Assembly: GCA_018650165.1 (NCBI GenBank) | Contig: JABIGM010000019.1 | Coordinates: forward strand, 1 to 36,108 | Direction: 5' to 3' | Source: Methanobacteriota archaeon | GTDB lineage: Archaea > Thermoplasmatota > Poseidoniia > Poseidoniales > Poseidoniaceae | Length of the DNA: 36,108 nucleotides | In this document: positions 77 through 33,373 of the stretch, piece after piece | How the letters are laid out: each line of letters begins with the position of its first letter | How positions within the stretch are numbered: position 1 is the first letter of the stretch | The notes under the pieces: model-generated | Database searches by the model: none | Told to the model about the DNA's origin: nothing | Seen by the model: the letters and a program-made list of their open reading frames with translations, nothing else | Made by a program: the position numbers and the translations under genes

Positions 77-131
77 GTCACAATTTGAGCGCCCATGGTT
101 CTTGAATAATCGCTTTGGGTAAAGGAAGAGG

Positions 132-155
132 TTTTCAATAGATGGCCGGTCGCCA
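132..155 (+). promoter_or_regulatory. Putative pus10 promoter: AT-rich box plus GTCGCCA element
   Basis: TTTTCAAT (132-139), 9 nt, GTCGCCA (149-155); same spacing as at three other promoters in the window. The TATA-like box is weak. Confidence 0.45.
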
Positions 156-190
156 ACTTCGTTCCAGTCTGGGGTTGGCCCCTTCTTGGA

Positions 191-1894
191 ATGGTGATTA
201 TTGTGTCAGACAAGGATACTTCAGCAGATAAATCCGATGAAGATGACGAATGGATGTCATATGCGAATGCTGGTTTTGGTTCAACAGACTATTCACTTTG
301 GGACGAGACAGAATCTCAACCGGAAGTTAGTACAGACCCTGATTGGGAAAATAACGATTTACAACTTGATACTGGTGAAGAAGAGATTCCAGCCGCTCCA
401 CGCCCGGCAGGACTGAAGCACTTGGTAAGAATCGGTACTTGCAACCACTGTTTAGGGCGCGTAGGTGGAAAGAAAAGATTTGAGCAATCGAACTATGAGT
501 CTGGAGTTGAAATCAGAACTAATGTTGTAGAAGGCGACCAAACAATGGCGCAGGCTAGAGAAGCCGAACCGCTATGTCCGTTTTGTGAAAACCTATTCGA
601 TGAGGCACCACTTCTTGCTGAATTAATCAAAGAAACCGTGGGTGAAAGAGAATGCTCACGAATGCAATTGGGTACTAGAATACCCAAAGACCAAACCGAA
701 GCGGAAGACCATATTAGAAAGCGATTTGGAGCAGGCGGCTCTGCTGCACTGAAGGTAAGTCTAGTCGATGAGATTGCTCGACAATTGAAATCGATTGGTT
801 TCCAAATAAAGTTGGTAATCGACAAGCCAGAAATTTTGGCACTAATCGACGTACTGACTCTGACTGTAGAACTAGACATACGCTCCCACTATGTGTATGG
901 AAGATATCGTAAACTGGCACGGGGGATTCCACAAACAAAGTGGCCATGCCGTTCTTGTAAAGGAAGAGGTTGTGAGCGATGTGACCAAACTGGGATGCAG
1001 TATCAATCATCTGTTCAAGGTTTAATCGGCGACCCGTCATTGGGATTGTTTGGTAGTAAAGAACATGCATTCCATGGAATGGGCAGAGAAGATATCGATG
1101 TCAGATGCCTAGGTCGTGGCCGTCCATTCGTTATTGAGATGAAGCAACCAGTAAAGAGAGAAGTTGACTATGATGCATTGATGAAAACCATCAATGAAAC
1201 TGCATCAGGACAACTCGAGGTAAGTGATATGCGAGCCTCAAACCGTAGTGAAGTTGTACGCGTTAAGGATACTCCTGCCGAAAAGTCCTATACAATTCGT
1301 TACAAAATCGAACCGATAACTCAGAAGGAGTTAGACCAAATCACTCAGGTCATGGAAATTTCCAAGAATAATGCCGACAGAAATCGTCGTCGACGAGATC
1401 ATCACAGAGGTAAGAGGCGCGAACTCAAAACGGAACCCGAACCTGAAATCGATTATTCACAATTGAAAAAAGCAGAATTAACAGCGCTTTGTGAAGAACG
1501 TGGACTGGCTAAGAGTGGAACAAAAAATGTGCTAATTGATAGGCTAGCGAATTTCAAAGAGGAGACTTTGCCGTTACCATCACAAGATTATGTAATGGAA
1601 ATAATGGAAAAATTACAGGGATGCACCCTTGCTCAAAGAACACCAGAAAGGGTCGCTCATCGACGTGCAGACAAAATTCGGAAAAGAAAAGTGCTTGAAA
1701 CATCTAATCCTGCTATCGGATTAGATGATGATGGAAATATGTATGGAGAGTTTAGTCTAAGATGCGAATCAGGAACCTACGTCAAAGAAACAGTTCATGG
1801 TGATGGCGGGCGAACTCAACCCTCAATCGCCTCCCTTGTCAAGGCAAAATGTACAGTCGAATGGCTCGATGTCGCCGATATTCACGCGGATTAA
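191..1894 (+). CDS. pus10: tRNA pseudouridine(54/55) synthase Pus10 with acidic N-terminal extension and internal SAP-like insertion
   Basis: Catalytic motif HGMGREDIDVR, YVYGRYRKLARGIPQTKW, QRTPERVAHRRAD, CESGTYVKE; N-terminal CxxC pairs; sits in the conserved archaeal pus10-rpl21e-rpo4-DUF655-ksgA cluster. True start may be GTG at 203 (GGTGA just upstream). Confidence 0.93.
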   Translation: MVIIVSDKDTSADKSDEDDEWMSYANAGFGSTDYSLWDETESQPEVSTDPDWENNDLQLDTGEEEIPAAPRPAGLKHLVRIGTCNHCLGRVGGKKRFEQSNYESGVEIRTNVVEGDQTMAQAREAEPLCPFCENLFDEAPLLAELIKETVGERECSRMQLGTRIPKDQTEAEDHIRKRFGAGGSAALKVSLVDEIARQLKSIGFQIKLVIDKPEILALIDVLTLTVELDIRSHYVYGRYRKLARGIPQTKWPCRSCKGRGCERCDQTGMQYQSSVQGLIGDPSLGLFGSKEHAFHGMGREDIDVRCLGRGRPFVIEMKQPVKREVDYDALMKTINETASGQLEVSDMRASNRSEVVRVKDTPAEKSYTIRYKIEPITQKELDQITQVMEISKNNADRNRRRRDHHRGKRRELKTEPEPEIDYSQLKKAELTALCEERGLAKSGTKNVLIDRLANFKEETLPLPSQDYVMEIMEKLQGCTLAQRTPERVAHRRADKIRKRKVLETSNPAIGLDDDGNMYGEFSLRCESGTYVKETVHGDGGRTQPSIASLVKAKCTVEWLDVADIHAD

Positions 1895-1908
1895 GGCTAT
1901 CGCGGTGC

Positions 1909-1932
1909 TTATATGGCCCGGGTAGGTCGGCA
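1909..1932 (+). promoter_or_regulatory. Putative rpl21e promoter: TATA box plus GTCGGCA element
   Basis: TTATATGG (1909-1916), 9 nt, GTCGGCA (1926-1932); preceded by GC-rich CGCGG. Confidence 0.6.
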
Positions 1933-1980
1933 GGTTGCTTCCAACTGTCTTAGGACACGCGAAGCAGGGGTACGATTAAC

Positions 1981-2271
1981 ATGCAGAAATCCAAGGGCCA
2001 GCGCCAAGGCACCAGATCAATTCTACGTAAAGGACGTCACGACAAGGGACGAGTCGTCATTTCACGCATCATGCACGAGTACCAAGAAGGTGACCGCGTT
2101 GCTATCGTTTTAGACGGTGGACAACAGATGGGAATGCCTCACCGCAGATTCCAAGGGCGAACTGGATTTATCCAGAAGCGCCAAGGTAAGGCATGGGTTG
2201 TCGCTGTCAAAGACGGCAACATGCAAAAGACTGTGGTTTCACGACCAGAGCACCTACGTCCATTGGAGTGA
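1981..2271 (+). CDS. rpl21e: 50S ribosomal protein L21e
   Basis: MQKSKGQRQGTR..., GMPHRRFQGRTG, C-terminal PEHLRP typical of eL21; conserved context. Confidence 0.96.
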   Translation: MQKSKGQRQGTRSILRKGRHDKGRVVISRIMHEYQEGDRVAIVLDGGQQMGMPHRRFQGRTGFIQKRQGKAWVVAVKDGNMQKTVVSRPEHLRPLE

Positions 2272-2276
2272 TATTA

Positions 2277-2639
2277 ATGACTGACAAAGGAACTTTCACA
2301 GATTTTCAATCAGTGCGTGAAATGCTTGAAGATGCTCAAAAGCGTCGTGGCTTTTTGACATATGAACAGAAAGCTGCTCTGCAGCATGCTGAATGGGCCG
2401 CTAGCGATAATCGAAACGGTTACAAGACTGAACCAAAAGTTTTCACGGATATGTTCACTGCAATCATGGAAATTGAAATCTTCCAGAAATACCCGGAACT
2501 AGCAGCGAAGTTGGCAGAACTTATGCCAATGCATTCTGACGATGTACGTGCGGTTATTGCTAGCCGCCGTATCTCGATAGAAGCTAGCGATGTCGAAGCA
2601 GTTCTAGACATCGTACGCCAAAATGTTGGCGTTAAATGA
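2277..2639 (+). CDS. rpo4: DNA-directed RNA polymerase subunit F (Rpo4)
   Basis: LTYEQKAALQHAE, KLAELMP...DDVRAV, HRDC-like C-terminus; directly after rpl21e. ATG 2277 preferred over the track start 2193, which lies inside rpl21e. Confidence 0.88.
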   Translation: MTDKGTFTDFQSVREMLEDAQKRRGFLTYEQKAALQHAEWAASDNRNGYKTEPKVFTDMFTAIMEIEIFQKYPELAAKLAELMPMHSDDVRAVIASRRISIEASDVEAVLDIVRQNVGVK

Positions 2640-2661
2640 AACCGACGGCCGGTGAGCAAAT

Positions 2662-3264
2662 ATGCGTAATGAGCGTCATAGTGGGCAACGTAGAAGCAGT
2701 TCTCGTACCGAAAAACCAGACCCTTTGATGAAAGTAGAATGGTGCCGAGTTATTGAACACCCCGAATCAGGTGGGGTTCTAGTGGTCATCACAGAACCAA
2801 ATTTACACGTGATTAGACTTCGTCCTAAATCCGGTTCTGGTTTGCAGATGGTAGGAGCTCGCCTATACATGGGAATAGACCATTCCAAGAGAGATGTAGT
2901 GCAAGATATTCTCGGTTTTGCACGTATCCGCGACCTTTCTAATTCAGCATCAATTGAACTTCCAGTTGTTATCCAGCAAGTTATAGAAGACTCCCCGGAG
3001 ATATTCATTCAACAATTCTTTAATCGTGCAGGAAACCTTTCTTTGAAGATGCACGCATTCGAATTATTGGCTGGCGTAGGAAACAAGAAAGCGATGGATA
3101 TGGTCACAAGGCGTGGCCGTGCAGGATGGGAAAATTTTGCGCAATTGGATGAAGACTGTGGCATTAATTCTGCAGAACTTCTTGCTAAGAGGTTTGTTTC
3201 AGAAATCGAGGATCGTAGCCTAGAGCCTCGATTAATCGATTTACTATTGCGTCAGGATGAGTGA
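2662..3264 (+). CDS. DUF655 family putative nucleic-acid-binding protein
   Basis: FFNRAGNLSLKMHAFELLAGVGNKK matches the DUF655 pattern (FFN.AGPI....H.LELLPGIGKK); position between rpo4 and ksgA is typical. Confidence 0.85.
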   Translation: MRNERHSGQRRSSSRTEKPDPLMKVEWCRVIEHPESGGVLVVITEPNLHVIRLRPKSGSGLQMVGARLYMGIDHSKRDVVQDILGFARIRDLSNSASIELPVVIQQVIEDSPEIFIQQFFNRAGNLSLKMHAFELLAGVGNKKAMDMVTRRGRAGWENFAQLDEDCGINSAELLAKRFVSEIEDRSLEPRLIDLLLRQDE

Positions 3265-4103
3265 TTACCATGGGCCACGGAGCCCGTGTTTTGATTGAAC
3301 GACTGCGAATGCGTCAGGACAATATCAAATCTTTAGGTCAACACTTTCTGAATAATGAGGAAGTATTGGACGAAACAATTTCTCTTGCAGAAATAAGTCC
3401 AGATGACCATATAATAGAAATTGGCCCAGGGCCCGGCGTCTTGACAGAGAGGCTACTGGAGACCAATTGTTCACTTACTGCAATTGAACTCGATGATGGA
3501 GCATGCGAATTCCTTAGAGATAATTTCCCAGGTCTTAATCTCATTGAAGGCGATGCACTCAAAGTCAAATGGCCTAATGCAAACAAGGTAGTTGCAAATA
3601 TTCCTTACCAAATATCATCGCCATTAATCGACATCCTCACACGCAATAATTCCATCAAGGAAGTGGTACTATTGCTGCAGGAAGAATTTGCAGAACGGCT
3701 AGTTGTGGAATGGGAAAGTGATAGAGGCAGTCTTGGCATGTGTACTATGCTGGATTGGGAATGTACATTTGAAATGCGGGTCGGACCTCATTGTTTCACT
3801 CCATCACCCCAAGTTCATTCACGTCTAGTAACGATGTCTAGAATTGATTCTCCTGAGAATTCTAAACTTGCAAAATTATTGATTCGGCAAGCATTTTCTC
3901 AAAGACGCAAAAAAATCAGAAATACTCTTTCAAAGGCTCCAAAACGAATCGCTCGCATAAGAGGATGGCATGCAAAAGTGTATGTTGAGGCCATGCAGTC
4001 TATCGATTGTGAGTTTATTGATGAAAGGCCTGAAGATTTAGAAATCGAGGATTGGCTAGAATTAGCGCGGCTTCTCGAAGATGCTCGGGCGGCGATGGGT
4101 TGA
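3261..4103 (+). CDS. rsmA: 16S rRNA adenine dimethyltransferase RsmA/KsgA/Dim1
   Basis: LGQHFL, IEIGPGPGVLT (SAM binding), IELD, GDAL, VVANIPYQISSP, F..RRKKIRN; GTGA overlap with the upstream stop. Confidence 0.95.
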   Translation: MITMGHGARVLIERLRMRQDNIKSLGQHFLNNEEVLDETISLAEISPDDHIIEIGPGPGVLTERLLETNCSLTAIELDDGACEFLRDNFPGLNLIEGDALKVKWPNANKVVANIPYQISSPLIDILTRNNSIKEVVLLLQEEFAERLVVEWESDRGSLGMCTMLDWECTFEMRVGPHCFTPSPQVHSRLVTMSRIDSPENSKLAKLLIRQAFSQRRKKIRNTLSKAPKRIARIRGWHAKVYVEAMQSIDCEFIDERPEDLEIEDWLELARLLEDARAAMG

Positions 4104-4146
4104 CATCTAACCGCCGGCTCGGCCTGTCTCGTCGGGGGGGGTACAC

Positions 4147-5235
4147 ATGGCAAAGAAGGACACATATCTGGCTCTATTACGTCGAGGAATTGACGAGACT
4201 ACAGCAATGCAATTGGCAGATGCTGGAATTAAGATTGGAGATCTCAAGAAAATTGATAAATCTCAATTGGTAGAAAATTATGGATTAAAACCCGACATTG
4301 CAGATGGTGTACTCGAAATCATCACTGCAGGTCCTCAATCTCATGGAAAGGAAAGGTTCCTTTCCAAGGTTCTAGCGCCGGAGCGCAAACCTGAAAATAA
4401 GATTGAAGAATTAAAATTCAAGCGTAAACAAAAGGACGTTTTGTCTGAATTAGCAGAACAAAAAGAACGCCTGAAGCTTGCTAAGGTAGAAGCATTCCGT
4501 GCTCAAAAGTTAGTAATGAACCGTCTTGGAAAGACAGTTGAGTTGATTGTTAAGTTAGAAAACAATCTTGATGATGAAGGTAAAGATGACCAGAAAGTCA
4601 AGATTCGTGACCAACTTGAGACCCGCGGTCTTGAAGCAGCACGTGATCATGAAATGCTCGAACTAGAAGGAACACCTCAAGATATTGTTGATTTCCGAAG
4701 AAAGATAGTTCCTGAACTAATACTTCATGCATGTCCAAATTGTAACGAAGAAATGGACCCCCGTACAAGCAGGAATCCAGATGATTCGAAAAATTGGTCA
4801 TTCATTTGCTGGGAATGTGAGACTCCATTTAATGCAGGATTATCATTGACAGTAGACACGATAATGGAAAATGGCGGAAGAATCGAAATCGACCCCGATG
4901 CACGCCCTCGTAATCCAGTACCTCCAAAGCCAGCCTCTCAGGACTTTACCACAATCAATGAATTGGTTAAGGCTGAATTAGTACAAACCGGTGTCGATGC
5001 AGATTCAATGACACAAGCAGCTGAGCAATCAGTCTTGACAAGTGGATTGATGAGTATCAATGACTGGATTGACCAGACTCTCGCTGCTAAGGGCTACATT
5101 CAGGCACAAGAAGACCGAGAAGATTTCATTCTTAGAACCGGTGCTGGAGCAACTAAGTTCAACAAGTGGATGAAGAAAGCAGGACTTTACTTCAACAAGC
5201 AAACTGGACGTTGGTCACGCTGGGAAGATCGTTGA
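4147..5235 (+). CDS. Hypothetical protein: HhH-like N-terminus, coiled coil, CxxC...CxxC zinc ribbon
   Basis: 362-aa ORF in operon-like context; CPNC and CWEC pairs about 25 aa apart; charged helical middle. Confidence 0.8.
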   Translation: MAKKDTYLALLRRGIDETTAMQLADAGIKIGDLKKIDKSQLVENYGLKPDIADGVLEIITAGPQSHGKERFLSKVLAPERKPENKIEELKFKRKQKDVLSELAEQKERLKLAKVEAFRAQKLVMNRLGKTVELIVKLENNLDDEGKDDQKVKIRDQLETRGLEAARDHEMLELEGTPQDIVDFRRKIVPELILHACPNCNEEMDPRTSRNPDDSKNWSFICWECETPFNAGLSLTVDTIMENGGRIEIDPDARPRNPVPPKPASQDFTTINELVKAELVQTGVDADSMTQAAEQSVLTSGLMSINDWIDQTLAAKGYIQAQEDREDFILRTGAGATKFNKWMKKAGLYFNKQTGRWSRWEDR

Positions 5236-5244
5236 GGTGCTCAA

Positions 5245-5532
5245 ATGGGCCTCATCCGTTTCCTACGTGGTGCTAAATTACTAGGGCAAACAAATGAGAT
5301 ACCCGGCAAGTCTCTTGTAGAGCATGCGCATGCTGCTAATGTGGACATTCCTACTAATTGCACCAGTGGTAATTGTGGCTCTTGTATGGTTACTCTTTTG
5401 TCAGGAGACGTTAGTCTACCAGACCCCCTAACTCCAGGCCTTGATGAGGAAATTGTTTCCGAAGGTGCGAGACTGGGATGTATAGGAGTCCCATCAGGCG
5501 ATGTCGAAATCGATATTTTGCCACCAATTTGA
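5245..5532 (+). CDS. 2Fe-2S ferredoxin-like protein
   Basis: CTSGNCGSC (C-x4-C-x2-C) plus distal RLGC; GAGGTG SD upstream. Confidence 0.9.
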   Translation: MGLIRFLRGAKLLGQTNEIPGKSLVEHAHAANVDIPTNCTSGNCGSCMVTLLSGDVSLPDPLTPGLDEEIVSEGARLGCIGVPSGDVEIDILPPI

Positions 5533-5541
5533 GGTGAATAA

Positions 5542-5700
5542 ATGGATATTCCACCATGGGTTTGGATTTTAAATATCGTAGGAGTAATTGCCGCAGTATG
5601 GTTTTTATCATGGCGTTTGAAATCTAAATTGGCTGAAGTTGAACAACGTCATGTAATGAGTGGAATAAGACATAGAAAACGCTTGGAAGAGTCTGAATGA
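5542..5700 (+). CDS. Small single-pass membrane protein, 52 aa (below the ORF-track cutoff)
   Basis: MDIPPWVWILNIVGVIAAVWFLSWRLKSKLAEVEQRHVMSGIRHRKRLEESE*; GAGGTGA SD at 5531-5537; fills the gap between ferredoxin and corA. Confidence 0.75.
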   Translation: MDIPPWVWILNIVGVIAAVWFLSWRLKSKLAEVEQRHVMSGIRHRKRLEESE

Positions 5701-5740
5701 AGCCCCAAAACGCATATGAGTGAAATGGCGAGGCCCAAAC

Positions 5741-6727
5741 ATGGCCGAACTCCGTTTACAAACCACCGGCGCAGGCGTTGTTGCCTCGTCAGAGTTCACT
5801 TTAGATGGGCTGGAAGAGGCTATCAAGGGAAAGGGAACCGCTTGGCTTGACATTCTCAAACCCGATGATGAAGTCAAAGAATGGCTACAGAATATTGGAA
5901 TTGATGAACTAGCGATTGAGGACATTTACGGGCATGCTAGCGACACCGTTCAAAGATTCCACGGCCACCGATTTATCGTGGTACGCGCCCGTGATGCAGA
6001 CAATCGCTTAGATACAGAGCCAGTGGCAATCATTCTTCGTGGTGATATGATGATCACAGTTAGAGGAACTAGAATTCCTGCCCTTGATGTATTGGGCCGC
6101 CGTCTAAAGACTGCTGATGATGATGAAGTTGCAATCGGTGTAGATTTTCTGCTTTACGAATTACTCGACTCAATTGCAGACGATTGGACACCTATCTTGT
6201 CTGAATATTCTAATAAGTTGGACGACTTAGAATATCAGGTATTTGACCCATCGAAATCATATGAAGGACTGCTAGAGGGCCTTCACGATTTGAAGAGACT
6301 CTTGCGTGAAGCGAGCAAATCTATCGAATCCTTACAAGCAGCATGTTTGAGATTGCTAAAACCTGGGGAGAGATTGATTAACGAATCATCCTTGGCGTTC
6401 TTTACAGATTTACAACAACTATCCAACACTCTGGTAAAGCGATGTTCAGCATATTCGGCAGGTGCTACCAGCACAAGAGACACTTACCTTTCCCATGTAA
6501 GTATGAACTTAGCACTCTCGAATGCAAAGTTGACAGAAGTGATGACAACACTCACAATCATTGGTGCAATCATGTTGCCCCTAACCTTGATTGCTGGAAT
6601 ATTTGGAATGAATACCAAGTTACCAGCTCAGTTAGATGAACTTGGTGGGTTTTGGACAATCATGGCGGGGATGTCTCTCTTCAGCATAATGATGCTAAGT
6701 TGGTTCTATCGCAAAAAATGGATATGA
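5741..6727 (+). CDS. corA: CorA family Mg2+/Co2+ transporter
   Basis: Two C-terminal TM helices with the signature GMN (GIFGMN); cytoplasmic WLDIL...P and DFLLYELLD motifs. Start could be GTG 5720 or ATG 5741. Confidence 0.92.
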   Translation: MAELRLQTTGAGVVASSEFTLDGLEEAIKGKGTAWLDILKPDDEVKEWLQNIGIDELAIEDIYGHASDTVQRFHGHRFIVVRARDADNRLDTEPVAIILRGDMMITVRGTRIPALDVLGRRLKTADDDEVAIGVDFLLYELLDSIADDWTPILSEYSNKLDDLEYQVFDPSKSYEGLLEGLHDLKRLLREASKSIESLQAACLRLLKPGERLINESSLAFFTDLQQLSNTLVKRCSAYSAGATSTRDTYLSHVSMNLALSNAKLTEVMTTLTIIGAIMLPLTLIAGIFGMNTKLPAQLDELGGFWTIMAGMSLFSIMMLSWFYRKKWI

Positions 6728-9700
6728 TTACTCTTCTTGAGTTGATTTTGTTTTAGGTTCAATTATCCCTAATGCTGCAGTGGTTAGTACCATTGATGCG
6801 ATTAGCGACAAGACAATCATCATTGCAGAGAATAATCCAAAGGTATTGAATAATCCCATTGATGAAGTAGCGATAATTGAAAATCCAGCGACATCCGAAA
6901 TCGCTGAACCAACTAAAGCAAGAGCACATGCGCCACCAACTCCATGTAAGGCTTGGCGATGATTGCCACCCTTTTCTCTACCTTCGCGATATCGTTCGGT
7001 AACATGTATACAATAATCGATACCTACGCCAAGAGATATCGTGGCAATAGTTACAGTTACAATATTTAGAGAATAACCAAATGCATAAATCAATCCATAG
7101 AGCCAAACAACAACCAATAGAATCGGTGTTAGGGACACAATTGCTTGCTTAACAGAGCGGAAACCAATAGAGAGTGTGATTAGAACAAACAACGAACCAA
7201 GCAATAGAGATGATTGCATTTCAGATTGCATTTTATCACTCGCAACGAATCTTGTAATCGGTTTACCAGTAAGCATTACCCATGTCAAAGGCTTATCATC
7301 TTCCGATGCCCCCTCTTCTTCCCAAGTACCCGATGAGAGATTTAGAAGAGGCCCTAAATCACTCTTGATTTTATCTATACCAGGACCCATTGATGGAAAA
7401 TCATCGGGAGAGGTTATTCCAAATCTAATCAGCATCATATCATAAGAAATATTCTTCCCACTTTCAGATAGCCATACTCGCTCAGGATCTGGAGTTTCAC
7501 TTGGTGCAATATACAAATCAATTAGAGATGAAGGTATTTCAGTGCCTGGAACTCCATCTAGTGTCAAAACCCCATAGAAGAATACAATACAATCTCTATC
7601 ATCTAAGTTTGGAGCATTTAGGATACCGATTTGTTCACAACCGGATTCATTGAAACCATGCCCCCAAAAAGGCTCAGGATTGCTCACCATCGACGCCGAT
7701 GCATAAATTACAAATTCATCAATGGCAAGAATATCGACCTTTCCATCAGGCTGTCTGGTCATTTTATCTATACCGCCGTCTAATCCTTTGTCTGCATTTT
7801 GCCTAAAGTCATCAATTGCTCTAAATACCTCAGGGTCGGCAACATCTCCCTCAATCAAGAGCATAGCAGGCTCTCCTTCATCGGAGAACCGTTCATTGAC
7901 CATATCGACTCCAAAGGCAAAATCTGAATCTTCATCAAGGAAATCATCAACGGAAAATTCCCCTTCTAAATTCACCATGCCCCAGGCGGCAGGAATTGTC
8001 AACAGAAGGCAGATTCCTGCAATAATTATTGGTCGAGATCCTGTGCCTGATTTTATTGCAATCTTTTGTAACATGTCGGTTCGAATGATATTACGTTTGA
8101 TTTTAGGAGAAGAATTCTTTCCTCTCTTTTCCAGCCATTCATCAAATGAGATACGAAGCAATGGCGCCCATATACCGGTCAATAAGAACGCTGCTAATAT
8201 TCCAAGACCAGCCTCAAGTCCGAACGACCTCAAAGCTGCAACATCACTGAAAAGATTAGCGCCAAATGCCGCCATAGTAGTAAGGCTAGTCAATATGATT
8301 GCCCGCCCAACTCTGTTGACAGTTATGCGGCCTGCACTTTGCGGAGAATTTCCTAAATTACGTTCTTCTTTGTAACGATGTAAAGCATGTAATGAATCAT
8401 CAATTCCAAGTGCTAGTACAAGAATTGGCAAAAGATTAGAGAACTGAGAACGAGAGATTAAGTCAATCCCTAACCAGCCTAAAAGAGAGGCAGAATGGCC
8501 GATTAGTCCCTGCATCCACAATAGTGCACCACCAAGTGATAAAGACACAATTGCAACATCCGACCATCGTCTTAGTGATGCATATAATAGAAAAATAATT
8601 GCAATACCCATACCGAAAATCAAGCCTCCAGAATTTTGTAATTCACGATTGACTTCTACATTTACTGCTTGTCCAACAACTAGAGTTAACGAATTATTAT
8701 CATGGCTGCGCAGGCTTCCTTCAAGATGCATTACAGACCATTCCAATGAACACATATTGTCAAGACCCAAGCAATATTCCGAGGTATATTCGGGAGGTTG
8801 TAGGACTAATTCCATACCATCTAAGCGGTAACCTCCAATCACCAAACCATCATCTGTGAATGAGATTTCTTTTTCAGGGTGAGCATCTTTCCAAATAGTG
8901 GTCCAACCAACCTCTTCCAAAGCAGCCCGATCTAGTTGAACCAATAGCCATGAAGCCGATGCAGACCAACGACCAGGTCCCGGTTCAGCATTCCTCCAAG
9001 TACCATCTTCATTCAGAGCACCACCGATTGGCCCTCCTACAATACCGGTATTTTCCGATGCTTTGACAAATCCTCTATCCAATGACAGCCATCTCAAGAA
9101 AGCAGAACCATTTGCTGCCGCCATTCTACTTGCCGCCAAATCAATATGTGCTTGAGTCAAATCTTCATCTTCAAATGTAAGGCATTCGAGTATACCACAA
9201 TCATCCCAATTTGTTTGGGCTGGCTCTAGTCCTGCTAAGGTCATCGTGGGATGTGTTAGAATCGATTCATTGGCCATAAAGCCACGGAAAATATCTGCAA
9301 GACTCATAACACCTGAAGTTTGTAAACCGGTTACATCATTGATGAACGGTTTGGTATAGTTACCAAGGGCATGGTCGTGAACTATCTGATGCTTTGATTG
9401 AATTTCTCGTAAAATAGTAAGATTCAGAATGCCGCCATCGGTATCTGTAATTCCAACCCATTCTTCTCCTGCATCAATTGCTTCATCAGCAGGGGGGAGG
9501 CTAGACCAATCTGGTGTTCCATCTTCGAGTAGTGGTACTGGGACTGGCGTGGAACCAACTGCTGCAGGGTCTCGTACGCTTACAACAAATCCAAGGATGA
9601 TTTCAGTGGTAGCAAATTCATCATTGATTTTACGCTCTGCGGTAAGTTCTGGCGATTCCATATCATACGATTCCATATCGATTGGTTCTAGTGCCTTTAG

Positions 9701-9799
9701 AGCACCAGGAATCATCAAGATAGTGAGGATAAAAACGGCTAAGTGCACCTTATTTCGGCGTGAAACTAGGACCTTTGATAGGGCTTCGAACTCAGCCAT
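6728..9799 (-). CDS. MMPL/RND family exporter
   Basis: Two repeats of TM + large extracytoplasmic loop + 5 TM, with GIDDSLH and GVGIDYCIH motifs. Confidence 0.9.
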   Translation of the reverse strand: MAEFEALSKVLVSRRNKVHLAVFILTILMIPGALKALEPIDMESYDMESPELTAERKINDEFATTEIILGFVVSVRDPAAVGSTPVPVPLLEDGTPDWSSLPPADEAIDAGEEWVGITDTDGGILNLTILREIQSKHQIVHDHALGNYTKPFINDVTGLQTSGVMSLADIFRGFMANESILTHPTMTLAGLEPAQTNWDDCGILECLTFEDEDLTQAHIDLAASRMAAANGSAFLRWLSLDRGFVKASENTGIVGGPIGGALNEDGTWRNAEPGPGRWSASASWLLVQLDRAALEEVGWTTIWKDAHPEKEISFTDDGLVIGGYRLDGMELVLQPPEYTSEYCLGLDNMCSLEWSVMHLEGSLRSHDNNSLTLVVGQAVNVEVNRELQNSGGLIFGMGIAIIFLLYASLRRWSDVAIVSLSLGGALLWMQGLIGHSASLLGWLGIDLISRSQFSNLLPILVLALGIDDSLHALHRYKEERNLGNSPQSAGRITVNRVGRAIILTSLTTMAAFGANLFSDVAALRSFGLEAGLGILAAFLLTGIWAPLLRISFDEWLEKRGKNSSPKIKRNIIRTDMLQKIAIKSGTGSRPIIIAGICLLLTIPAAWGMVNLEGEFSVDDFLDEDSDFAFGVDMVNERFSDEGEPAMLLIEGDVADPEVFRAIDDFRQNADKGLDGGIDKMTRQPDGKVDILAIDEFVIYASASMVSNPEPFWGHGFNESGCEQIGILNAPNLDDRDCIVFFYGVLTLDGVPGTEIPSSLIDLYIAPSETPDPERVWLSESGKNISYDMMLIRFGITSPDDFPSMGPGIDKIKSDLGPLLNLSSGTWEEEGASEDDKPLTWVMLTGKPITRFVASDKMQSEMQSSLLLGSLFVLITLSIGFRSVKQAIVSLTPILLVVVWLYGLIYAFGYSLNIVTVTIATISLGVGIDYCIHVTERYREGREKGGNHRQALHGVGGACALALVGSAISDVAGFSIIATSSMGLFNTFGLFSAMMIVLSLIASMVLTTAALGIIEPKTKSTQEE

Positions 9800-9868
9800 T
9801 GTTTACCCCCCTATCTTCTTGTTATTGAACAGTTGTATTCATTTGTGTGATATGTGACGCAGGTTTGG

Positions 9869-9952
9869 GCGGGGGTCGCCCAGCTTGGTCAACGGCGGTG
9901 GGTTTAGGTCCCATTTCTTATTGATTCGCAGGTTCGAATCCTGCCCCCCGCA
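9869..9952 (+). tRNA. tRNA-Leu (anticodon TAG)
   Basis: Acceptor GCGGGGG/CCCCCGC, anticodon arm GTGGG-TTTAGGT-CCCAT, long variable arm, T arm GCAGG-TTCGAAT-CCTGC, discriminator A; CCA not encoded. Confidence 0.95.
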
Positions 9953-10053
9953 TCTCTTTTAGCATCTCTTTCATTCTTGGTAAGTTTGTATTGTGAATAA
10001 TTTACAACTTAGTAATAGGTACATACATAGTGTAGTCCTTTCTCCCTAAATTT

Positions 10054-10590
<537 letters not shown>

Positions 10591-12669
10591 TCAAACAGGA
10601 GATAGGTCAAGAGCTCCTGACCAAATATCAAGGCCTCTAAGTCTGCAGTCAAACCGTTGACCAAGTTCTAAAACCGAACTACCATTTTCTCTCTCAACTT
10701 TCAGCCCATATTGATCGATCATCAAGCGTTCCTTACCACCCAACTGGCTCAAATGCATACGTCCTTCAAACGAACCATCATCTTCGAGATCCAAATATAT
10801 CCATGGGCTACGAAGACCTACCACTCTCGCATTCCAAGTCGAACCTTCTTCAGTATTGATTAGGTGCATGTTACAAGTACTTGCAACTAATTCCCATTCG
10901 AGTTTCTTAGCTTGCCTAGAACGGGTCGAGCAATGTTCTGAAATTTCTTCGACTTCTTCGAATGTATGGGTCCAGTCTTTACTTTCAAGCAATGATTTCA
11001 ACTGACGATGGGCCACTAGGTCTGGATACCTTCGTATAGGGGATGTGAAATGGACATAGGCATCCAAATCGAGACCAAAATGTCCAATATTTTCTTCACT
11101 GTAAATCGCCCTTTGCATTAATTGAAATAGCCCCTGATCTACAACCCGGCGCTTAATCTCAGAGAGTTCTGATGCTGCTGATTGGGCATTTCTCAAAGCC
11201 TGTAGCATTTCTGAGCGAGCCTGAGAATCAACAACACTTGAGAGATAGTTACCATCTATGACTTCAACAGTCTCTTCATTATCAAAAGATAGGCCGGCAT
11301 CAGCCCAAGCAGAAAGCAAATTCATTGTTTCAGTAGTTTCAGTCTCCCCGGTTTTTCTATGCGATGGCATTGGCAATTCAATATCCACATCTAAGCACTC
11401 TAGTTTAGCATTTAGAGATTCAACCTCGGGAGAATCCGGTGGCGAATGACATCTCCATGGTAGTGCGGATTCAGCATCTCCCAATAGATGTCCAACCGCT
11501 TCATTCGTTGCAACCATAAAAGCCTCAATCATTTCAGTAGCCTCATTTGGCCATTTCACTTCAAGAGTTATTTCATCCCCATTAATCCGAGGACGCCTTT
11601 CCGCTCCAGCGATGTCAAGACCGATTCTTTTTGCCCGCATCATTTTTGATAACTTCATCATTTCAGGGAATAGATTTCCTTCAATGACATCATCATATGA
11701 CAAATTTTGTTTTACACGGATTAGTGCTTGGTGCGCCTTGGTCGACACTACCCTTGCCTCATTAATTTTCATTTCAATAACCATTGCGTATCTATCGGCA
11801 TCATCTCTCAACGAACATAAATCATCAGCTAAACGTGGAGGCAGCATTGGAAGTACACAATGAGGAAGATATACGCTTGTAGCCCTTTCTCTGGCATATC
11901 TGTCAAGTGATGTATCGGGCTTGACATAGTGAGCAACATCTGCAATGGCGACCCATAATGTATCTTCAATAAGGCATACAGCATCATCAAAATCTCTTGC
12001 ATCAGGAGGATCAATTGTAGTGAATGGTATGTGTCGTAAATCAACTCTATTCTCTGACATCACAGGTTCGGGTAATTTCGCTGCAAATTCGATTAAATCA
12101 TCTCGATATATTCTCGGAAATGGGTTTGTCCCCATCTTTGTTCGATAAGCCAATCTAGCATCTAACATTTCTTCTGGAGTGAAACTGTCACGCATTAGCC
12201 ATGCCATAGATACCAGTGGGTCTGGGAATCGTAGTTTGGCTTCAGATTTCGCAACTTTCTCTAATTGTTTTGTCATATCAAAGCCAAGATATGTTCGCAA
12301 CACCTCCCCCTCCAATAATGAGAAATCATCAGGGAGACTCTCTCCCCTCAAAGTTGCAAGCATCGCACCTTCGTGTAATTGGTGTTGTGATGTCCTTACC
12401 GCTGCTTCAATTTCCTCTCTTTGTTGGGTCGAACGCAAAGAGAAATCATTTGTATCTCCAATAAACAATTCACCTTTTCGACAAGCATGTACAATAGTTT
12501 CTTGAATCTGAGAGTGTAATTGTTTTTCAGTTAATTTAAGATTAGATTCTTTCGATAAGATTGTACTAAGTGCCAAATCAACCGATAAGTTCCTCTCTAG
12601 ACCATGTGAAATCAATCTTCGATAAAGACGTTCATCAGGGGGACTTACCTTTCCCTTACGCCTTTTCAC
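10591..12669 (-). CDS. RNase II/R family (RNB domain) exoribonuclease with C-terminal S1 domain
   Basis: [13 protein letters not shown] (catalytic Asp cluster), [19 protein letters not shown]...[16 protein letters not shown]1-like C-terminus; GTG start overlapping the dnaJ stop. Confidence 0.92.
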
Positions 12670-13529
12670 AAACCCACGTCCTTCAATGCCTGTAAGGCAT
12701 CTATTTGTGATTTGTCAAGTTCATCAAGTTCGTCCAAAATAAATTCAATATCAATCTCTTTCACCCGTTGGCGGTCACCAACTTGCGATAATGGCGGAAT
12801 AGATATTTTCCCCTTTACACCAGAAGGAAGAGTAACAGTAACCTTCCCACCGAGAATCAATGTGGAATATGGGATTTCAACTTCTTTGATAATTCTGCCA
12901 TTATCCCAGCGGCATCCTTCGCCAGGGTCAATTCGAATATTTACGATTAAATCTCCATTAATGCCTTGAGGGTGACCATGGCCTTGGTCTTTAATGCGAA
13001 TCTCCTTGCCATGTTTTACGTTAGGATTTACTTTGACACTCAGGGTGCGACGTTTTCTATCTATACTACCGTGGCTTCCTGGAATTAATTGAGTGTATGT
13101 TAGATTGAAAGAACCACCACTGGCAGCATCTTCGGGGGAAAGGTCGAGCCATGATACAGCATTCTTCCCTCTCTCCTGAGGAGGTCGTGGAGAGTTGTGC
13201 CGTCGTTGCCCCCCGCCCATACTTTTGCCAAACATTTGACCAAGGACATCCTCCATGCCACCCATGCCACCCATGCCGCCAAAGGGGCTGCCTCTACCGC
13301 CGCCAACTCCACCAAACATCTGTTCCTGCTCATGCTTACGGCGGGCTTCAGCCGTACCGATTGAATCGTAAGCGGCTTGTACTTCTTTGAATTTCGCCTC
13401 TGCTGCGGTCGAACCATCGTTACGATCGGGGTGGAATTGCCTTGCAAGTTTGCGAAAAGACTTCTTTATTTCAGCGTCACTGGCTCCCCGTGATACACCG
13501 AGAACCTGATATGGGTCTCGCTCCGCCAT
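12666..13529 (-). CDS. DnaJ-class protein without zinc finger (class II / CbpA-like)
   Basis: J domain DPYQVLGV...FHPDRN with HPD, G/M-rich linker, C-terminal domain (GQGHG...GDLIV); no CxxCxGxG repeats. Confidence 0.9.
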
Positions 13530-13595
13530 GGGTCTATCGAGACACAGGTGTGCTTTGAATCAGTCGATAGCCGGAGCCTATCCGCGCCGCTGAGG

Positions 13596-13619
13596 TTAAA
13601 TGAGGGCCCTAAGTCGCCA
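13596..13619 (+). promoter_or_regulatory. Putative secE-spt5 promoter: TATA box plus GTCGCCA element
   Basis: TTAAATGA (13596-13603), 9 nt, GTCGCCA (13613-13619); SD GAGGTGA follows before ATG 13641. Confidence 0.6.
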
Positions 13620-13640
13620 TGACACCACTGAGGTGAAACC

Positions 13641-13907
13641 ATGTCAGATGACAAGAACCAGACACGCTCCTTCGAGGACAAAGTCCAGGACAAGCAAGAT
13701 GCTATTGAAGCACAATTCCGCAAGATATCTCGCGGAAGCTGGGCTCGTATCATTCGTATGGCTCGAAAGCCTACGCCTCAGGAATTCAAACAAACATCAA
13801 TTATTTGTGGGATTGGACTATTTATCCTAGGTTTTATTGGGTTTGTAATGCTCGTACTGATGGACAATTTCATACCATGGCTTATCCATGATGTATTTGG
13901 TATCTGA
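13641..13907 (+). CDS. secE: Protein translocase SEC61 gamma / SecE
   Basis: RIIRMARKPTPQEFKQT...GIGLFILGFIGF matches the SecE/Sec61g pattern; upstream of spt5 as in the conserved cluster. Confidence 0.92.
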   Translation: MSDDKNQTRSFEDKVQDKQDAIEAQFRKISRGSWARIIRMARKPTPQEFKQTSIICGIGLFILGFIGFVMLVLMDNFIPWLIHDVFGI

Positions 13908-13923
13908 TATTGGAGGGGAAATT

Positions 13924-14862
13924 ATGACTGACGCATTTATCGCATTTGTTCGCCACGAAGAGGAATTATTACTTCTTCATCGCTCTAAATCTGATTCAGA
14001 TTCACCAGGCCTTTGGGACGGTGTGTACGGAATTGGAGATACCGAAGAGGATGTACTTAACCGTGTAGCGGAATGTACCGGAATTCCTCTAGAGGATTTG
14101 GAATATGTTCGTGCAGGACCTGCACTTGGAATTGATATCGGAGGCCGTCTACAAGATATTGCTCCATGCCTAGTAGTATCTTCCAGTAAGGAAGTAACTC
14201 CAACAGGCCGTTACACTGAATCGATCTGGGTTGATCCGGGAAACATTGGTTGGGAAGACCGTGAAAATAACAGAACGAGACACCATGTATTCACAGATCT
14301 AGATATGGAAGGTAGCGAGAAATTGTTGCTGGAGATGTATGGTTCAGTTGCTACTTACCTTTACATCGTAAAGACTGCAATTGGTTCAGAGAAGCGCGTC
14401 GCTGATGAAATGAAAGCTCGTTTGATGGGCTCAGGCTCACTTTCAGCACTTAGCGATGATATATTCGGCATTCTTCATCCAACAGGCATGCGTGGATATG
14501 TAATCGTTGAATCCAGCGCTTCACACCATGTTGAGAAGTTAATCGGGCGTTCTGGTGGTCGTGATCCAAAGGCCCGCCGTGGACTAAATCAAACACCTCT
14601 AAAGAACGCAAAGACTGTTCTTCCAGGAGAGGCAGCACTCAAGGATATCCTACCGTACTTAGAGCCAAAGGCAGTTACCAGCGGCATAGAAGTAGGATGT
14701 ATCGTAGAGATTGTAACAGGAGCATTCAAAGGCGAAAAGGCACGTGTTACTAGTGTCGCAGAAACCAAAGAAGAAGTTAGTATGGAGTTGTATGAACAAC
14801 CTATCCCTATGACCCTAAAGATGCGTGGAGATCATGTCCGCGTCGTCGAGAGAGTCGAATGA
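13924..14862 (+). CDS. spt5: Transcription elongation factor Spt5 (NGN + KOW) fused to an N-terminal Nudix-like domain
   Basis: From about 14356: YIVKTAIGSEKRV, MRGYVIVE (NGN), GCIVEIVTGAFKGEKARV (KOW). First ~140 aa resemble a Nudix fold. GGAGGGG SD before ATG 13924. Confidence 0.9.
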   Translation: MTDAFIAFVRHEEELLLLHRSKSDSDSPGLWDGVYGIGDTEEDVLNRVAECTGIPLEDLEYVRAGPALGIDIGGRLQDIAPCLVVSSSKEVTPTGRYTESIWVDPGNIGWEDRENNRTRHHVFTDLDMEGSEKLLLEMYGSVATYLYIVKTAIGSEKRVADEMKARLMGSGSLSALSDDIFGILHPTGMRGYVIVESSASHHVEKLIGRSGGRDPKARRGLNQTPLKNAKTVLPGEAALKDILPYLEPKAVTSGIEVGCIVEIVTGAFKGEKARVTSVAETKEEVSMELYEQPIPMTLKMRGDHVRVVERVE

Positions 14863-14877
14863 TTGCGCGCGGCGCGA

Positions 14878-14901
14878 TTAAATAGGGGAGGCAAGTCGGC
14901 A
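14878..14901 (+). promoter_or_regulatory. Putative internal promoter for rpl11: TATA box plus GTCGGCA element
   Basis: TTAAATAG (14878-14885), 9 nt, GTCGGCA (14895-14901); GC-rich GCGCGGCGCG upstream in the BRE position. Confidence 0.6.
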
Positions 14902-14940
14902 ACCTGCTCACGTCCGTGTGAGTAACAGAGGTGTACAAAC

Positions 14941-15222
14941 ATGCCAAAGCCTTGGACCAGCCATCTTATCATAAAAGCGCTAGGTGTCAAGAAATGCAAT
15001 GGTAGTCTGGATGCCGCTACTGAGGACTTGAGCCTCGAAAAAGCGATGGACGTCGCTCGCCAAAAGCACAACGACGGCCACTTGACTGGAGCAGACCTGA
15101 AAGCGCAGACCCGTGAGGTCATCGGCACATGTGTGTCAATGCGTGTTAAGATCGATGGACTCTGGGCCAAGGACGCTCTGACCACAATTGAAAAAGGAGA
15201 ATGGGACGAACGATTTGCTTGA
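14941..15222 (+). CDS. rpl11: 50S ribosomal protein L11, C-terminal (rRNA-binding) domain only
   Basis: P.TSHLIIKALGVKK, LSLEKAMDVARQK, DLKAQTREVIGTCVSMRVKIDG, IEKGEWDE match the uL11 CTD; position between spt5 and rpl1; GAGGTG SD. Confidence 0.85.
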   Translation: MPKPWTSHLIIKALGVKKCNGSLDAATEDLSLEKAMDVARQKHNDGHLTGADLKAQTREVIGTCVSMRVKIDGLWAKDALTTIEKGEWDERFA

Positions 15223-15238
15223 ACTGAATCACGGACCA

Positions 15239-15277
15239 CGGTAGAGGGGCTTGTCCCTTCGCAGACCGAAGGGGTGA
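15239..15277 (+). promoter_or_regulatory. Structured rpl1 leader, candidate L1 autoregulatory site
   Basis: CGGT/ACCG and GAGGGG/TCCCTT helices around an asymmetric loop; competing hairpin CCCTTCG/CGAAGGG overlaps the SD GGGGTGA. Confidence 0.4.
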
Positions 15278-15283
15278 ACGGAA

Positions 15284-15928
15284 ATGGAACAGAAAATACA
15301 AGAAGCAATCAAGAACGCTATCGAAGGCGCTCCAGAACGTAAATTTGTTGAATCGTTAGATATGGCATTCACAATCAAAGATGTTGATTTGAAAAACCCT
15401 AACAATCGTATTCAAGAAGAAATCCGCCTACCTGCTGGTCGTGGCAAGCAAATCAAAATTGCAATGTTTGCAGCATCAGATGCTGCAAAGAAAGCAAAAG
15501 ATGCCGGTATCCATGTTATCGATCCATCTGAGATTGAAGAACTTGGAAAGAACAAGGGTAAAGCTAAGAAAATAGCAAACTCGTTTGATTTCTTCCTTTC
15601 AGAAGTCCCTCATATGGGATTGATTGGTCGTTACCTCGGTGTAGTTCTAGGTCCTCGTGGCAAGATGCCCCGTCCAGTTCCACCAGTAGTTGACCCAGCA
15701 GCAATAGCAGCAGGTCTTCAATCCACTACTGTAGTCAAGTCTCGTGACAAGGTTACTTTCCAAACATCGTTTGGAACTCTTGCACAATCTGAAGATGAAT
15801 TATTGAAGAACGCTATGGAAGTTTACACCCGTGTAACATCTCGATTAGAGCGCGGAGTAGGAAACATTCGTTCACTTAACATCAAGACCACAATGGGTCC
15901 AGCAACTAGAGTCGAGGTGGTTAATTGA
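15284..15928 (+). CDS. rpl1: 50S ribosomal protein L1
   Basis: ERKFVESLDM, LPAGRGK, LGVVLGPRGKMP, NIKTTMGP. Confidence 0.97.
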   Translation: MEQKIQEAIKNAIEGAPERKFVESLDMAFTIKDVDLKNPNNRIQEEIRLPAGRGKQIKIAMFAASDAAKKAKDAGIHVIDPSEIEELGKNKGKAKKIANSFDFFLSEVPHMGLIGRYLGVVLGPRGKMPRPVPPVVDPAAIAAGLQSTTVVKSRDKVTFQTSFGTLAQSEDELLKNAMEVYTRVTSRLERGVGNIRSLNIKTTMGPATRVEVVN

Positions 15929-33216: not shown

Positions 33217-33272
33217 ATCAAGTCCAGTTCAGTCTGAAGAATTGATATACGCGAGGTTGGTCGCACAGACTA

Positions 33273-33373
33273 CCTCGCTTAGCTCAGTTGGTAGAGCACC
33301 TGGCTGTAGTTGGAAAATTCCAAACGTCTCAGCAGACACCAGGGTGTCCCCAGTTCAAGTCTGGGAGCGGGGA
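33273..33373 (+). tRNA. tRNA-Tyr (GTA) with a 28-nt intron (33310-33337) at position 37/38
   Basis: Acceptor CCTCGCT/AGCGGGG (C1-G72), D arm GCTC/GAGC, anticodon stem CCTGG/CCAGG, T arm CCCAG-TTCAAGT-CTGGG; bulge-helix-bulge with CTGT pairing intron GCAG. Confidence 0.93.

Follow-up and report, generated by a model that had tools for sequence, protein, structure and literature searches.

A G+C-rich promoter-proximal module, probably part of an extended core promoter, precedes translation-apparatus genes in the Poseidoniales

The part of an archaeal promoter that melts at initiation is, as a rule, A+T-rich; what, then, is a G+C-rich heptamer doing at this very place in several promoters of a marine archaeon, and what reads it? 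The question is raised by a stretch of 36,108 nucleotides (nt), hereafter the window, which is an entire contig (C60, i.e. JABIGM010000019.1) of a Candidatus Poseidoniaceae (Marine Group II) assembly, GCA_018650165.1. Members of Marine Group II abound in the surface ocean and have yet to be cultured. A preliminary description of the window had reported a TATA-like box followed nine nt later by GTCG(G/C)CA ahead of pus10 and of the genes encoding ribosomal protein L21e, SecE and ribosomal protein L11, with a variant ahead of tRNA-Tyr, and had proposed either a lineage-specific core element or a regulator site. We consider it fairly probable, though far from assured, that in the order Poseidoniales the basal transcription machinery reads an order-specific extended core promoter, with the heptamer as its G+C-rich promoter-proximal module.

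The assembly searched comprises 1,747,706 bases in 66 contigs (44 % G+C, about 80 % complete). Within the window, GTCGSCA (S, G or C) occurs 13 times for 5.25 expected, a count reached by none of 100 shuffles, and nine of the 13 copies lie within genes. Genome-wide, 357 copies were counted, only 27 of them outside crude open reading frame (ORF) calls, and several of the latter had about 45 nt of flank in common. Seven copies outside the ORF calls and sharing this flank were used as a seed matrix, which retrieved 26 sites scoring at least 12 bits and none in the reversed genome, the background for all matrix counts. A first refinement at a threshold of 11 bits ran away (272 hits versus 204 in the reversed genome) and was discarded; the final matrix was rebuilt from 51 hits of at least 20 bits. 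With it, real and reversed genomes gave 94 versus 12 sites at a score of at least 12 bits, 70 versus 6 at 14, 60 versus 1 at 16 and 50 versus 0 at 20.

The resulting consensus spans about 46 nt, CG-N6-TTnAWATA-GGGG-nGG-nn-GGTSGSC-N3-TTGCT (W, A or T). The column counts in GGTSGSC are G45, T49, S51, G48, S50 and C39 (of 51). The heptamer as first described thus survives in part: its core GTCG(G/C)C is real, its final A is variable (A16/C13/G21/T1 of 51), and the motif is of about 46 nt rather than 7. The fixed spacing from which the element had been proposed is not due to chance, as shown by a matrix-free scan of the 2143 core copies of the genome, in which TNAWAWA stands exactly 17 nt before the start of GT[CG]G[CG]C in 17 cases versus 0-4 at each of 36 other offsets. 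The consensus lacks symmetry, no dyad or repeat being visible by eye (no repeat-finding program was used).

The transcription start predicted from two anchors that do not depend on the matrix, i.e. mature tRNA 5' ends and leaderless ATGs, falls on the G or C of TGC. The tRNA set comprised 33 genes, namely 31 Rfam matches and two found by ARAGORN alone, which detected only 17 in total. Eighteen of these 33 carry a match of at least 12 bits, and 15 of the 18 have their mature 5' end 0-6 nt past the G of TGC. When tRNA ends were aligned without the matrix, positions -11, -10 and -9 were G or C in 25, 25 and 28 of the 33 (76-85 %) versus 44 % G+C for the genome, and an A/T peak appeared at -32 to -28. 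At 15 sites (14 and that of L40e), the start codon falls 0-2 nt after the predicted start, i.e. the genes are leaderless. With the start so predicted, the TATA box would be centred at about -26, in an ordinary archaeal geometry. The heptamer, first placed at about -13 to -7, is borne out at about -12/-11 to -6/-5, the start lying 11-12 nt after its first G. Very short 5' leaders are expected for the 15 tRNAs with a start predicted this close to their mature ends. RNase P RNA is present (C49:12849-13145) and is without the motif.

Measured from this start, TTnAWATA (matrix positions -18 to -11) occupies -30/-29 to -23/-22, the place of the TATA box in a TBP/TFB core promoter. GGTSGSC stands where an A+T-rich promoter-proximal element would be looked for, at -11 to -2. 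The TGC columns hold T in 33, G in 32 and C in 29 of 51 sites, which fits a pyrimidine-purine step at the predicted start. In the motif class, the zone 5' of TATA, i.e. where a TFB-recognition element (BRE) would lie, reads CG (39 and 44 of 51) then G-S-S and is not A-rich; ATG starts in general show a mild enrichment of A at -35 to -32.

The genes served by the element form a recognisable class. The 52 sites of at least 19.5 bits precede two rRNA genes (16S and 23S), 13 tRNAs and 37 protein genes. Among the latter are 18 ribosomal-protein genes (L15e, L11, S13, S12, S15, L18e, S2, S8e, L3, L21e, L10e, S19e, L44e, L7Ae, S6e, S3Ae, L37e and L40e), that of EF-1alpha and those of three RNA-polymerase subunits (RpoK, RpoE and RpoL), i.e. 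22 of 37. The other 15 encode Rrp4, a Toprim (DnaG-like) protein, Tpt1, SecE, FKBP, nucleoside diphosphate kinase, H+-pyrophosphatase, isocitrate dehydrogenase, a stand-alone AsnC-type ligand domain, DUF7121 and five proteins without a family. Controls were 120 operon-first genes of at least 100 amino acids (aa) with a best upstream score below 8 bits, of which 111 were scanned after omission of nine very long ones; genes scoring 8-12 bits were left out of both sets. The ribosomal-protein, elongation-factor and RNA-polymerase class makes up 22/37 motif genes versus 2/111 controls (S24e and EF-2; Fisher p=2e-14), and 14/23 when motif genes are limited to those of at least 100 aa (p=2e-11).

The proposed link with translation and transcription genes is therefore well founded, as this strong enrichment extends over rRNA, tRNA, ribosomal-protein, EF-1alpha and RNA-polymerase-subunit genes. 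The preliminary description had not found the element before the transporter or metabolic genes inspected. Genome-wide, it is enriched at information-processing genes and not exclusive to them, since weaker copies also precede some metabolic and housekeeping genes, among them those for isocitrate dehydrogenase, H+-pyrophosphatase, nucleoside diphosphate kinase and dehydroquinase. Lower-scoring sites were found ahead of the genes for dehydroquinase, 3-hydroxyacyl-CoA dehydrogenase, citrate synthase, succinyl-CoA synthetase, alanine dehydrogenase, TFB and others, many of them leaderless. The 16S and 23S genes are unlinked and lie on different contigs (23S, C32:1-1077; 16S, C44:8400-9184), each with its own promoter, of 41.9 bits for 23S and 30.1 bits for 16S, and with leaders of about 137 and 299 nt.

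Four proteins of unknown function also stand behind motif promoters, of 27.7-33.7 bits: L044:1180-2067 (-), L044:5064-5897 (-), L041:5537-5749 (+) and L055:16795-16899 (-), i.e. a DUF7121 protein of 296 aa, another of 278 aa, one of 71 aa and a Lys/Arg-rich basic peptide of 35 aa. The 296-aa and 278-aa proteins gave only weak long-stretch hits to SMC/Rad50 models and are maybe coiled-coil. Any of the four may be an abundant protein that works with the translation or the transcription apparatus.

In the window, direct reading of the sequence showed the coordinates first given for all five boxes and heptamers to be right, and these sites are the five best plus-strand matches to the final matrix. 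They are listed below with the promoter modules assigned to each.

117..162, plus strand: candidate pus10 promoter; TATA-like TTTTCAAT at 132-139, GGTCGCC at 148-154, heptamer at 149-155, start predicted at about 160; site as first described, TTTTCAAT-N9-GTCGCCA, 132-155, plus strand.
1894..1939, plus strand: L21e operon promoter; TCGCGG at 1899-1904, TATA CTTATATG at 1908-1915, GGTCGGC at 1925-1931, heptamer at 1926-1932, TTGCT at 1935-1939; site as first described, TTATATGG-N9-GTCGGCA, 1909-1932, plus strand.
13581..13626, plus strand: secE-spt5 promoter; TATA GTTAAATG at 13595-13602, AGTCGCC at 13612-13618, heptamer at 13613-13619, start predicted at about 13624; site as first described, TTAAATGA-N9-GTCGCCA, 13596-13619, plus strand.
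14863..14908, plus strand: L11-L1-L10-L12 operon promoter; CGGCGCG at 14869-14875, TATA ATTAAATA at 14877-14884, GGGGAGG at 14885-14891, AGTCGGC at 14894-14900; site as first described, TTAAATAG-N9-GTCGGCA, 14878-14901, plus strand.
33228..33273, plus strand: tRNA-Tyr promoter; TATA TTGATATA at 33242-33249, GGTCGCA at 33259-33265, variant heptamer at 33260-33266, start predicted at about 33271; site as first described, TGATATAC-N9-GTCGCAC, 33243-33266, plus strand.

The L11 promoter is the top match of the window (41.3 bits), with its heptamer at 14895-14901, CTGCT at 14904-14908 and a start predicted at about 14906. It is followed by the L21e promoter (33.5 bits, start predicted at about 1937, L21e ATG at 1981), the tRNA-Tyr promoter (24.6 bits) and the secE-spt5 promoter (21.3 bits, secE ATG at 13641). 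The downstream genes are those originally named, i.e. Pus10, L21e, SecE (a weak hit, with Spt5 next) and L11 (with L1, L10 and L12 behind it). The mature 5' end of tRNA-Tyr does lie 30 nt after the start of the box: Rfam places an intron-containing tRNA at 33273-33373 (52.2 bits), which ARAGORN missed.

The pus10 site is the weakest of the five (15.4 bits) and is without the TGC initiator; at this level, i.e. at least 14 bits, the reversed genome still gives 6 hits versus 70 real ones. Upstream of pus10 at five other loci of the same genus, the best hits were of 18.5, 14.4, 10.6 and 6.4 bits, with none at the fifth; outside the genus they were mostly below 11 bits, with two exceptions of 15.5 and 17.4 bits at 114 and 237 nt upstream. 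As a fourth protein-gene site, pus10 is thus a qualified case: the element stands where it was reported, with a weak score and only partial conservation within the genus. Between the predicted pus10 start and the ATG at 191, a hairpin-like sequence, GGGGTTGGCCCC, occupies 171-182 (+), and variants of it are kept in most Poseidoniaceae genera, even where the pus10 promoter match is lost.

The only other hit of at least 12 bits in the window (15.2 bits) lies on the minus strand within the dnaJ coding region, at 13443-13488; it is probably a chance hit and less likely an internal promoter. Logan contigs from four metatranscriptome runs have ends at 1950 and 1953 for L21e and at 13642 and 13644 for secE, in some cases next to adapter sequence, and contig ends do not show starts. 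Other Logan contigs run across the L11 promoter (14056-14943 and 13932-15388) and are uninformative on starts.

Is the element confined to this lineage, as had been suggested? A sequence-only covariance model built from 44 sites was run on other genomes with a cut-off of E<=0.01 per genome; these are samples of genomes, so that absence means not found in those searched. The two large Poseidoniales families (f1 and f3) were represented by 36 genomes, all of which matched: 22/22 in f1 (8-24 matches each) and 14/14 in f3 (2-25 matches each). In the sister lineages, i.e. the other two families of the class (f4 and f5), 2/24 genomes had one match each, and among other Thermoplasmatota 1/67 genomes (G129) had three. 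The lineage specificity therefore holds, with almost no match outside f1 and f3. In the third family of the order (f2), two genomes gave only 5 and 8 matches, at E<=1.

By eye, GGTCGSC is visible in the tRNA upstream regions of one f3 genome, and those of one sister-lineage genome show TTTAAA then C-rich sequence with no GGTCGSC-like block. A strict pattern, GT[CG]G[CG]C at -24 to -5 of tRNAs, proved too narrow as a measure (7/33 tRNAs here, 8/29 in genome G014 and 2/29 in genome G023, versus shuffle means of 0.8, 1.0 and 0.24); the two tRNAs of G023 are a trace of it in a sister lineage. Viral carriage was considered too: ATAGGGG-N6-GTCGGC-N4-TGC matched two viral contigs, neither in a convincing promoter context.

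Orthologous promoters show which parts are kept. The L21e promoter was found 3' of pus10 in 30/30 Poseidoniaceae loci (own locus included), at 25.6-40.1 bits, with GGTCG conserved to at least 90 % and a variable spacer. Across 80 Poseidoniales loci with close relatives of the Spt5 of the window, matrix hits fall at two kept places, before secE and after spt5. In most of the 80 (65 unique sequences), the secE match is at the same place; its spacer differs between loci, and TATA and the core GT[CG]G or TTGG persist. For the L11 promoter, 54 unique Poseidoniales sequences hardly vary between CGCG and TGC, both included, the bases just 5' being unconserved. Such patterns point to purifying selection on the TATA box, the GGTCG/GTSG core and TGC in these three promoters, with spacers and upstream flanks free to vary. 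The first bases of the L11-operon leader, CACGTCCGTG(T)GAG at 14909-14922 (+), form a short palindrome, also near-invariant in the 54 sequences, which may be a candidate site for autoregulation by a ribosomal protein.

Nothing was found in the literature on promoters of Poseidoniales/Marine Group II or on this element (full-text searches, subscription journals not being covered). Known systems allow a comparison. In M. jannaschii, the proximal element at -11 to -2 is of 86 % A+T, with consensus AAATTWTTAT and with -11/-10 most conserved, as in haloarchaea, in support of the statement that this region is normally A+T-rich in other archaea (PMC2699501). Promoters with a promoter-proximal element (Methanocaldococcus jannaschii, haloarchaea, Sulfolobus) resemble those described here, as measured from the predicted start, in having TATA about 26 nt before the start, a conserved element at about -12 to -2, a pyrimidine-purine initiator and a fixed geometry. 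They differ in that their element is A+T-rich where GGTSGSC stands here, and in that the zone where a BRE would lie reads CG/GC-rich here rather than purine- or A-rich.

In Methanococcales, the promoters of stable-RNA genes favour T at -1, G at +1 and C at +2; they share with the Poseidoniales class a TGC initiator and a consensus that is tighter for rRNA and tRNA genes than for protein genes (PMC2699501). The element likewise serves rRNA and tRNA genes (16S, 23S and 18/33 tRNAs) with TGC at the predicted start. Unlike them, the Poseidoniales class adds genes for ribosomal proteins, EF-1alpha and RNA-polymerase subunits, as well as two G-rich modules between TATA and the start. The TGC initiator is thus common to both, and what is novel is the G+C-rich block. 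The names box A (TATA) and box B (at the start) for the Methanococcales promoters reportedly go back to Wich et al. in 1986 and to Thomm and Wich in 1988.

Two more distant systems offer analogies. In bacteria, the promoters of rRNA and ribosomal-protein genes contain the discriminator, a G+C-rich block within the stretch to be melted, between the sigma-70 -10 hexamer and +1, which responds to ppGpp/DksA and serves as a handle for growth-rate control. The likeness, a G+C-rich block in the to-be-melted region of translation-apparatus promoters, is one of function only: the position is another, there is no homology, and sigma-70, ppGpp and DksA stand against TBP, TFB and TFE. The promoters described here have a TATA box and the genome encodes TBP and TFB, which sets them apart from the bacterial case; to our knowledge, archaea lack the bacterial ppGpp/DksA system. 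In animals, the TCT/TOP initiator of ribosomal-protein genes is a specialised core element at the start of TATA-less RNA polymerase II promoters. It similarly singles out translation-machinery genes by means of the core promoter, but it lies at the start site and without TATA, whereas the Poseidoniales element lies at about -10 and has one.

An extended core promoter read by the basal machinery accounts for these observations as follows. The modules themselves, at fixed spacing and numbered from the predicted start, run from 5' to 3' as a CG/GC-rich zone at the place of the BRE, TTnAWATA centred at about -26, the G run GGGGnGG (about -21 to -15), GGTSGSC (about -12 to -6) and the TGC initiator. 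TBP and TFB would sit on the TATA zone, with the G run beneath the TFB core. In Pyrococcus furiosus, the TFB core cross-links at -16 to -20, the TFB B-reader/B-linker at -6 to -10 of the template strand and -4 to -6 of the non-template strand, and the TFE-alpha winged helix at -10 to -14 of the non-template strand (PMC13502027). GGTSGSC would thus fall in the melted stretch touched by the B-reader, the B-linker and TFE-alpha's winged helix within the open complex, and its reader would more likely be the basal machinery than a separate regulator. This reading is favoured because the spacing is invariant, the consensus asymmetric, the element grades into weaker copies and the G-rich modules lie under basal-factor contacts. 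The element would mark a class of strong, co-ordinately used promoters. As a G+C-rich melted region is harder to open, the whole translation apparatus could be tuned at the opening step, on the model of the bacterial discriminator.

A contrast with the ordinary promoters of the genome was sought in several ways. Anchoring on the TATA module only retained 120/728 upstream regions, many of whose TATA hits may be false, and gave a downstream signal of at most 0.13 bit; this near-absence of signal would fit a subset-specific element. Selecting TATA at a leaderless distance from the ATG yielded just 27 cases, and an expectation-maximisation search converged on TT[CG]AA without flanking signal. The ATG-anchored profile of 415 genes (T/A at -28 to -26, C at -1 and GAGG at -11 to -8) is read as a probable mix of leaderless and Shine-Dalgarno-led genes rather than as the element.

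Several points weigh against an extended core promoter read by the basal machinery. Ordinary promoters are too poorly defined in this genome for a clean two-class contrast, and 15/33 tRNAs, RNase P RNA and the ribosomal-protein gene S24e have no good match. The start positions are predicted only, assembled RNA contigs being unable to show starts. The matrix was refined on its own hits, which introduces some circularity at its weaker positions; support free of it comes from the seed matrix, offset scan, tRNA anchors and other genomes. TFB1 is fully canonical in both B-reader and B-linker (EWRVF, RTGAP and HDKGLST) and thus offers no cause for an unusual sequence preference. Finally, a fixed position would equally fit a repressor sitting on the core promoter.

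Could a second TFB supply the missing cause? The genome has one TBP and two TFB-family genes. TFB1 has the canonical motifs just named in alignment to human TFIIB; the second gene (C13:18316-18933, minus strand) is cut by a contig end, and its product, TFB2, has in this genome and in relatives (L270-L278, L295-L303) a Ser/Thr/Arg-rich N-terminal tail and a non-canonical B-reader helix. One paralogue would then read the GGTSGSC/TGC promoters and the other the rest, giving global control of the translation apparatus. We regard as possible, though rather unlikely, both such a division between paralogues and its specific form, in which the order-specific TFB2 would recognise these promoters in the open complex and TFB1/TFB2 switching would act as a sigma-factor-like or discriminator-like control of ribosome synthesis.

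The distribution of TFB2 is in favour of this hypothesis. All 24 other Poseidoniales genomes searched matched at E<=1e-20, G061 only via a TFB1-type gene, which leaves 23 with a distinct TFB2 (47-72 % identity). All 15 TFB2 sequences compared (6 from f1, 7 from f3 and 2 from f2) have [ED]W[TVI]x[HRK] instead of EWRAF/EWRVF, the canonical Arg and Phe being lost, whereas 12/12 full-length TFBs of five sister-lineage genomes have EWRAF and TFB1 here has EWRVF. In Pyrococcus the B-reader helix cross-links the template strand at about -6/-7, i.e. within the element (PMC13502027), and the zone 5' of TATA, the part that TFB reads, is also unusual (CG/GC-rich). However, TFB2 and the motif are two traits co-occurring in one clade and count as a single evolutionary event, the motif-free sister lineages also have several TFBs, one of them short and divergent, and family f2 has TFB2 yet only the few motif matches given above. 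TFB copy number explains nothing alone: TFIIB-repeat matches number 4 in most of the Poseidoniales genomes sampled and 6 in most of those from the sister lineages, taken to mean 2 and 3 TFB-family genes.

The element might instead be the operator of a dedicated DNA-binding regulator, activator or repressor, overlapping the core promoter and co-ordinating ribosome-synthesis genes. The gene set does resemble a regulon, conservation among orthologous promoters is as high for the element as for the TATA box, and a G+C-rich sequence is unexpected in a melted region. An operator would be looked for as a dyad or repeats at variable positions, however, and what is found is an asymmetric consensus with neither discernible by eye, at a strictly invariant offset to TATA and start; a position that never varies and an asymmetric consensus fit a core element better. 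Moreover, the stretch from 5' of TATA to the start is conserved as one unit, and the element grades into weaker copies before many unrelated genes. No candidate protein turned up, no systematic search having been made, and we hold this explanation to be unlikely. That the conserved sequence is a transcript part (a shared 5' leader or RNA motif) is, despite the conservation of the L11 leader CACGTCCGTG just 3', hardly credible, and such a leader is excluded because of where tRNA ends and leaderless ATGs place the start: mature tRNAs begin 2-6 nt after TGC, leaving the heptamer 5' of the RNA, leaderless ATGs lie at the predicted start, and TATA, only 17 nt before the heptamer, is too near for a start ahead of it.

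Some products of the genes concerned are unusual in themselves. The L11 gene of the window (14941-15222, plus strand) encodes only 93 aa, which match nothing but the C-terminal RNA-binding domain of the archaeal L11 model (residues 71-158 of 164), and its start, MPKPW, is kept in the Poseidoniales loci read. The L11 N-terminal domain (PF03946) was not found in this 80 %-complete genome at E<=0.1 and is present in 14/14 control genomes. Spt5 (13888-14862, plus strand) is 324 aa long, the whole Spt5 model aligning on residues 159-322, with an N-terminal extension of about 158 aa without family match; this long form is kept at 70-90 % identity in the 80 Poseidoniales loci. SAP domains (PF02037) are fused to Pus10 (191-1894, residues 421-455), to the C-terminus of S3Ae (L044:14929-15918) and to a 268-aa protein (L019:4958-5764), a set of fusions that is unusual for an archaeon.

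As read from its sequence and distribution, the element is probably a new, Poseidoniales-specific form of archaeal core promoter, G+C-rich where others are A+T-rich. In hundreds of assemblies its consensus can serve to predict transcription units and the genes likely to be highly expressed, and it flags proteins of unknown function that share the promoter, i.e. the DUF7121 protein of 296 aa and those of 278, 71 and 35 aa. It also offers a handle on how archaea co-ordinate the synthesis of their translation apparatus. As a conserved G+C-rich block in the melted region, the opposite of what has been described in other archaea, it lends itself naturally to experiments on how promoter DNA is read by TFE and by two segments of TFB, B-reader and B-linker.

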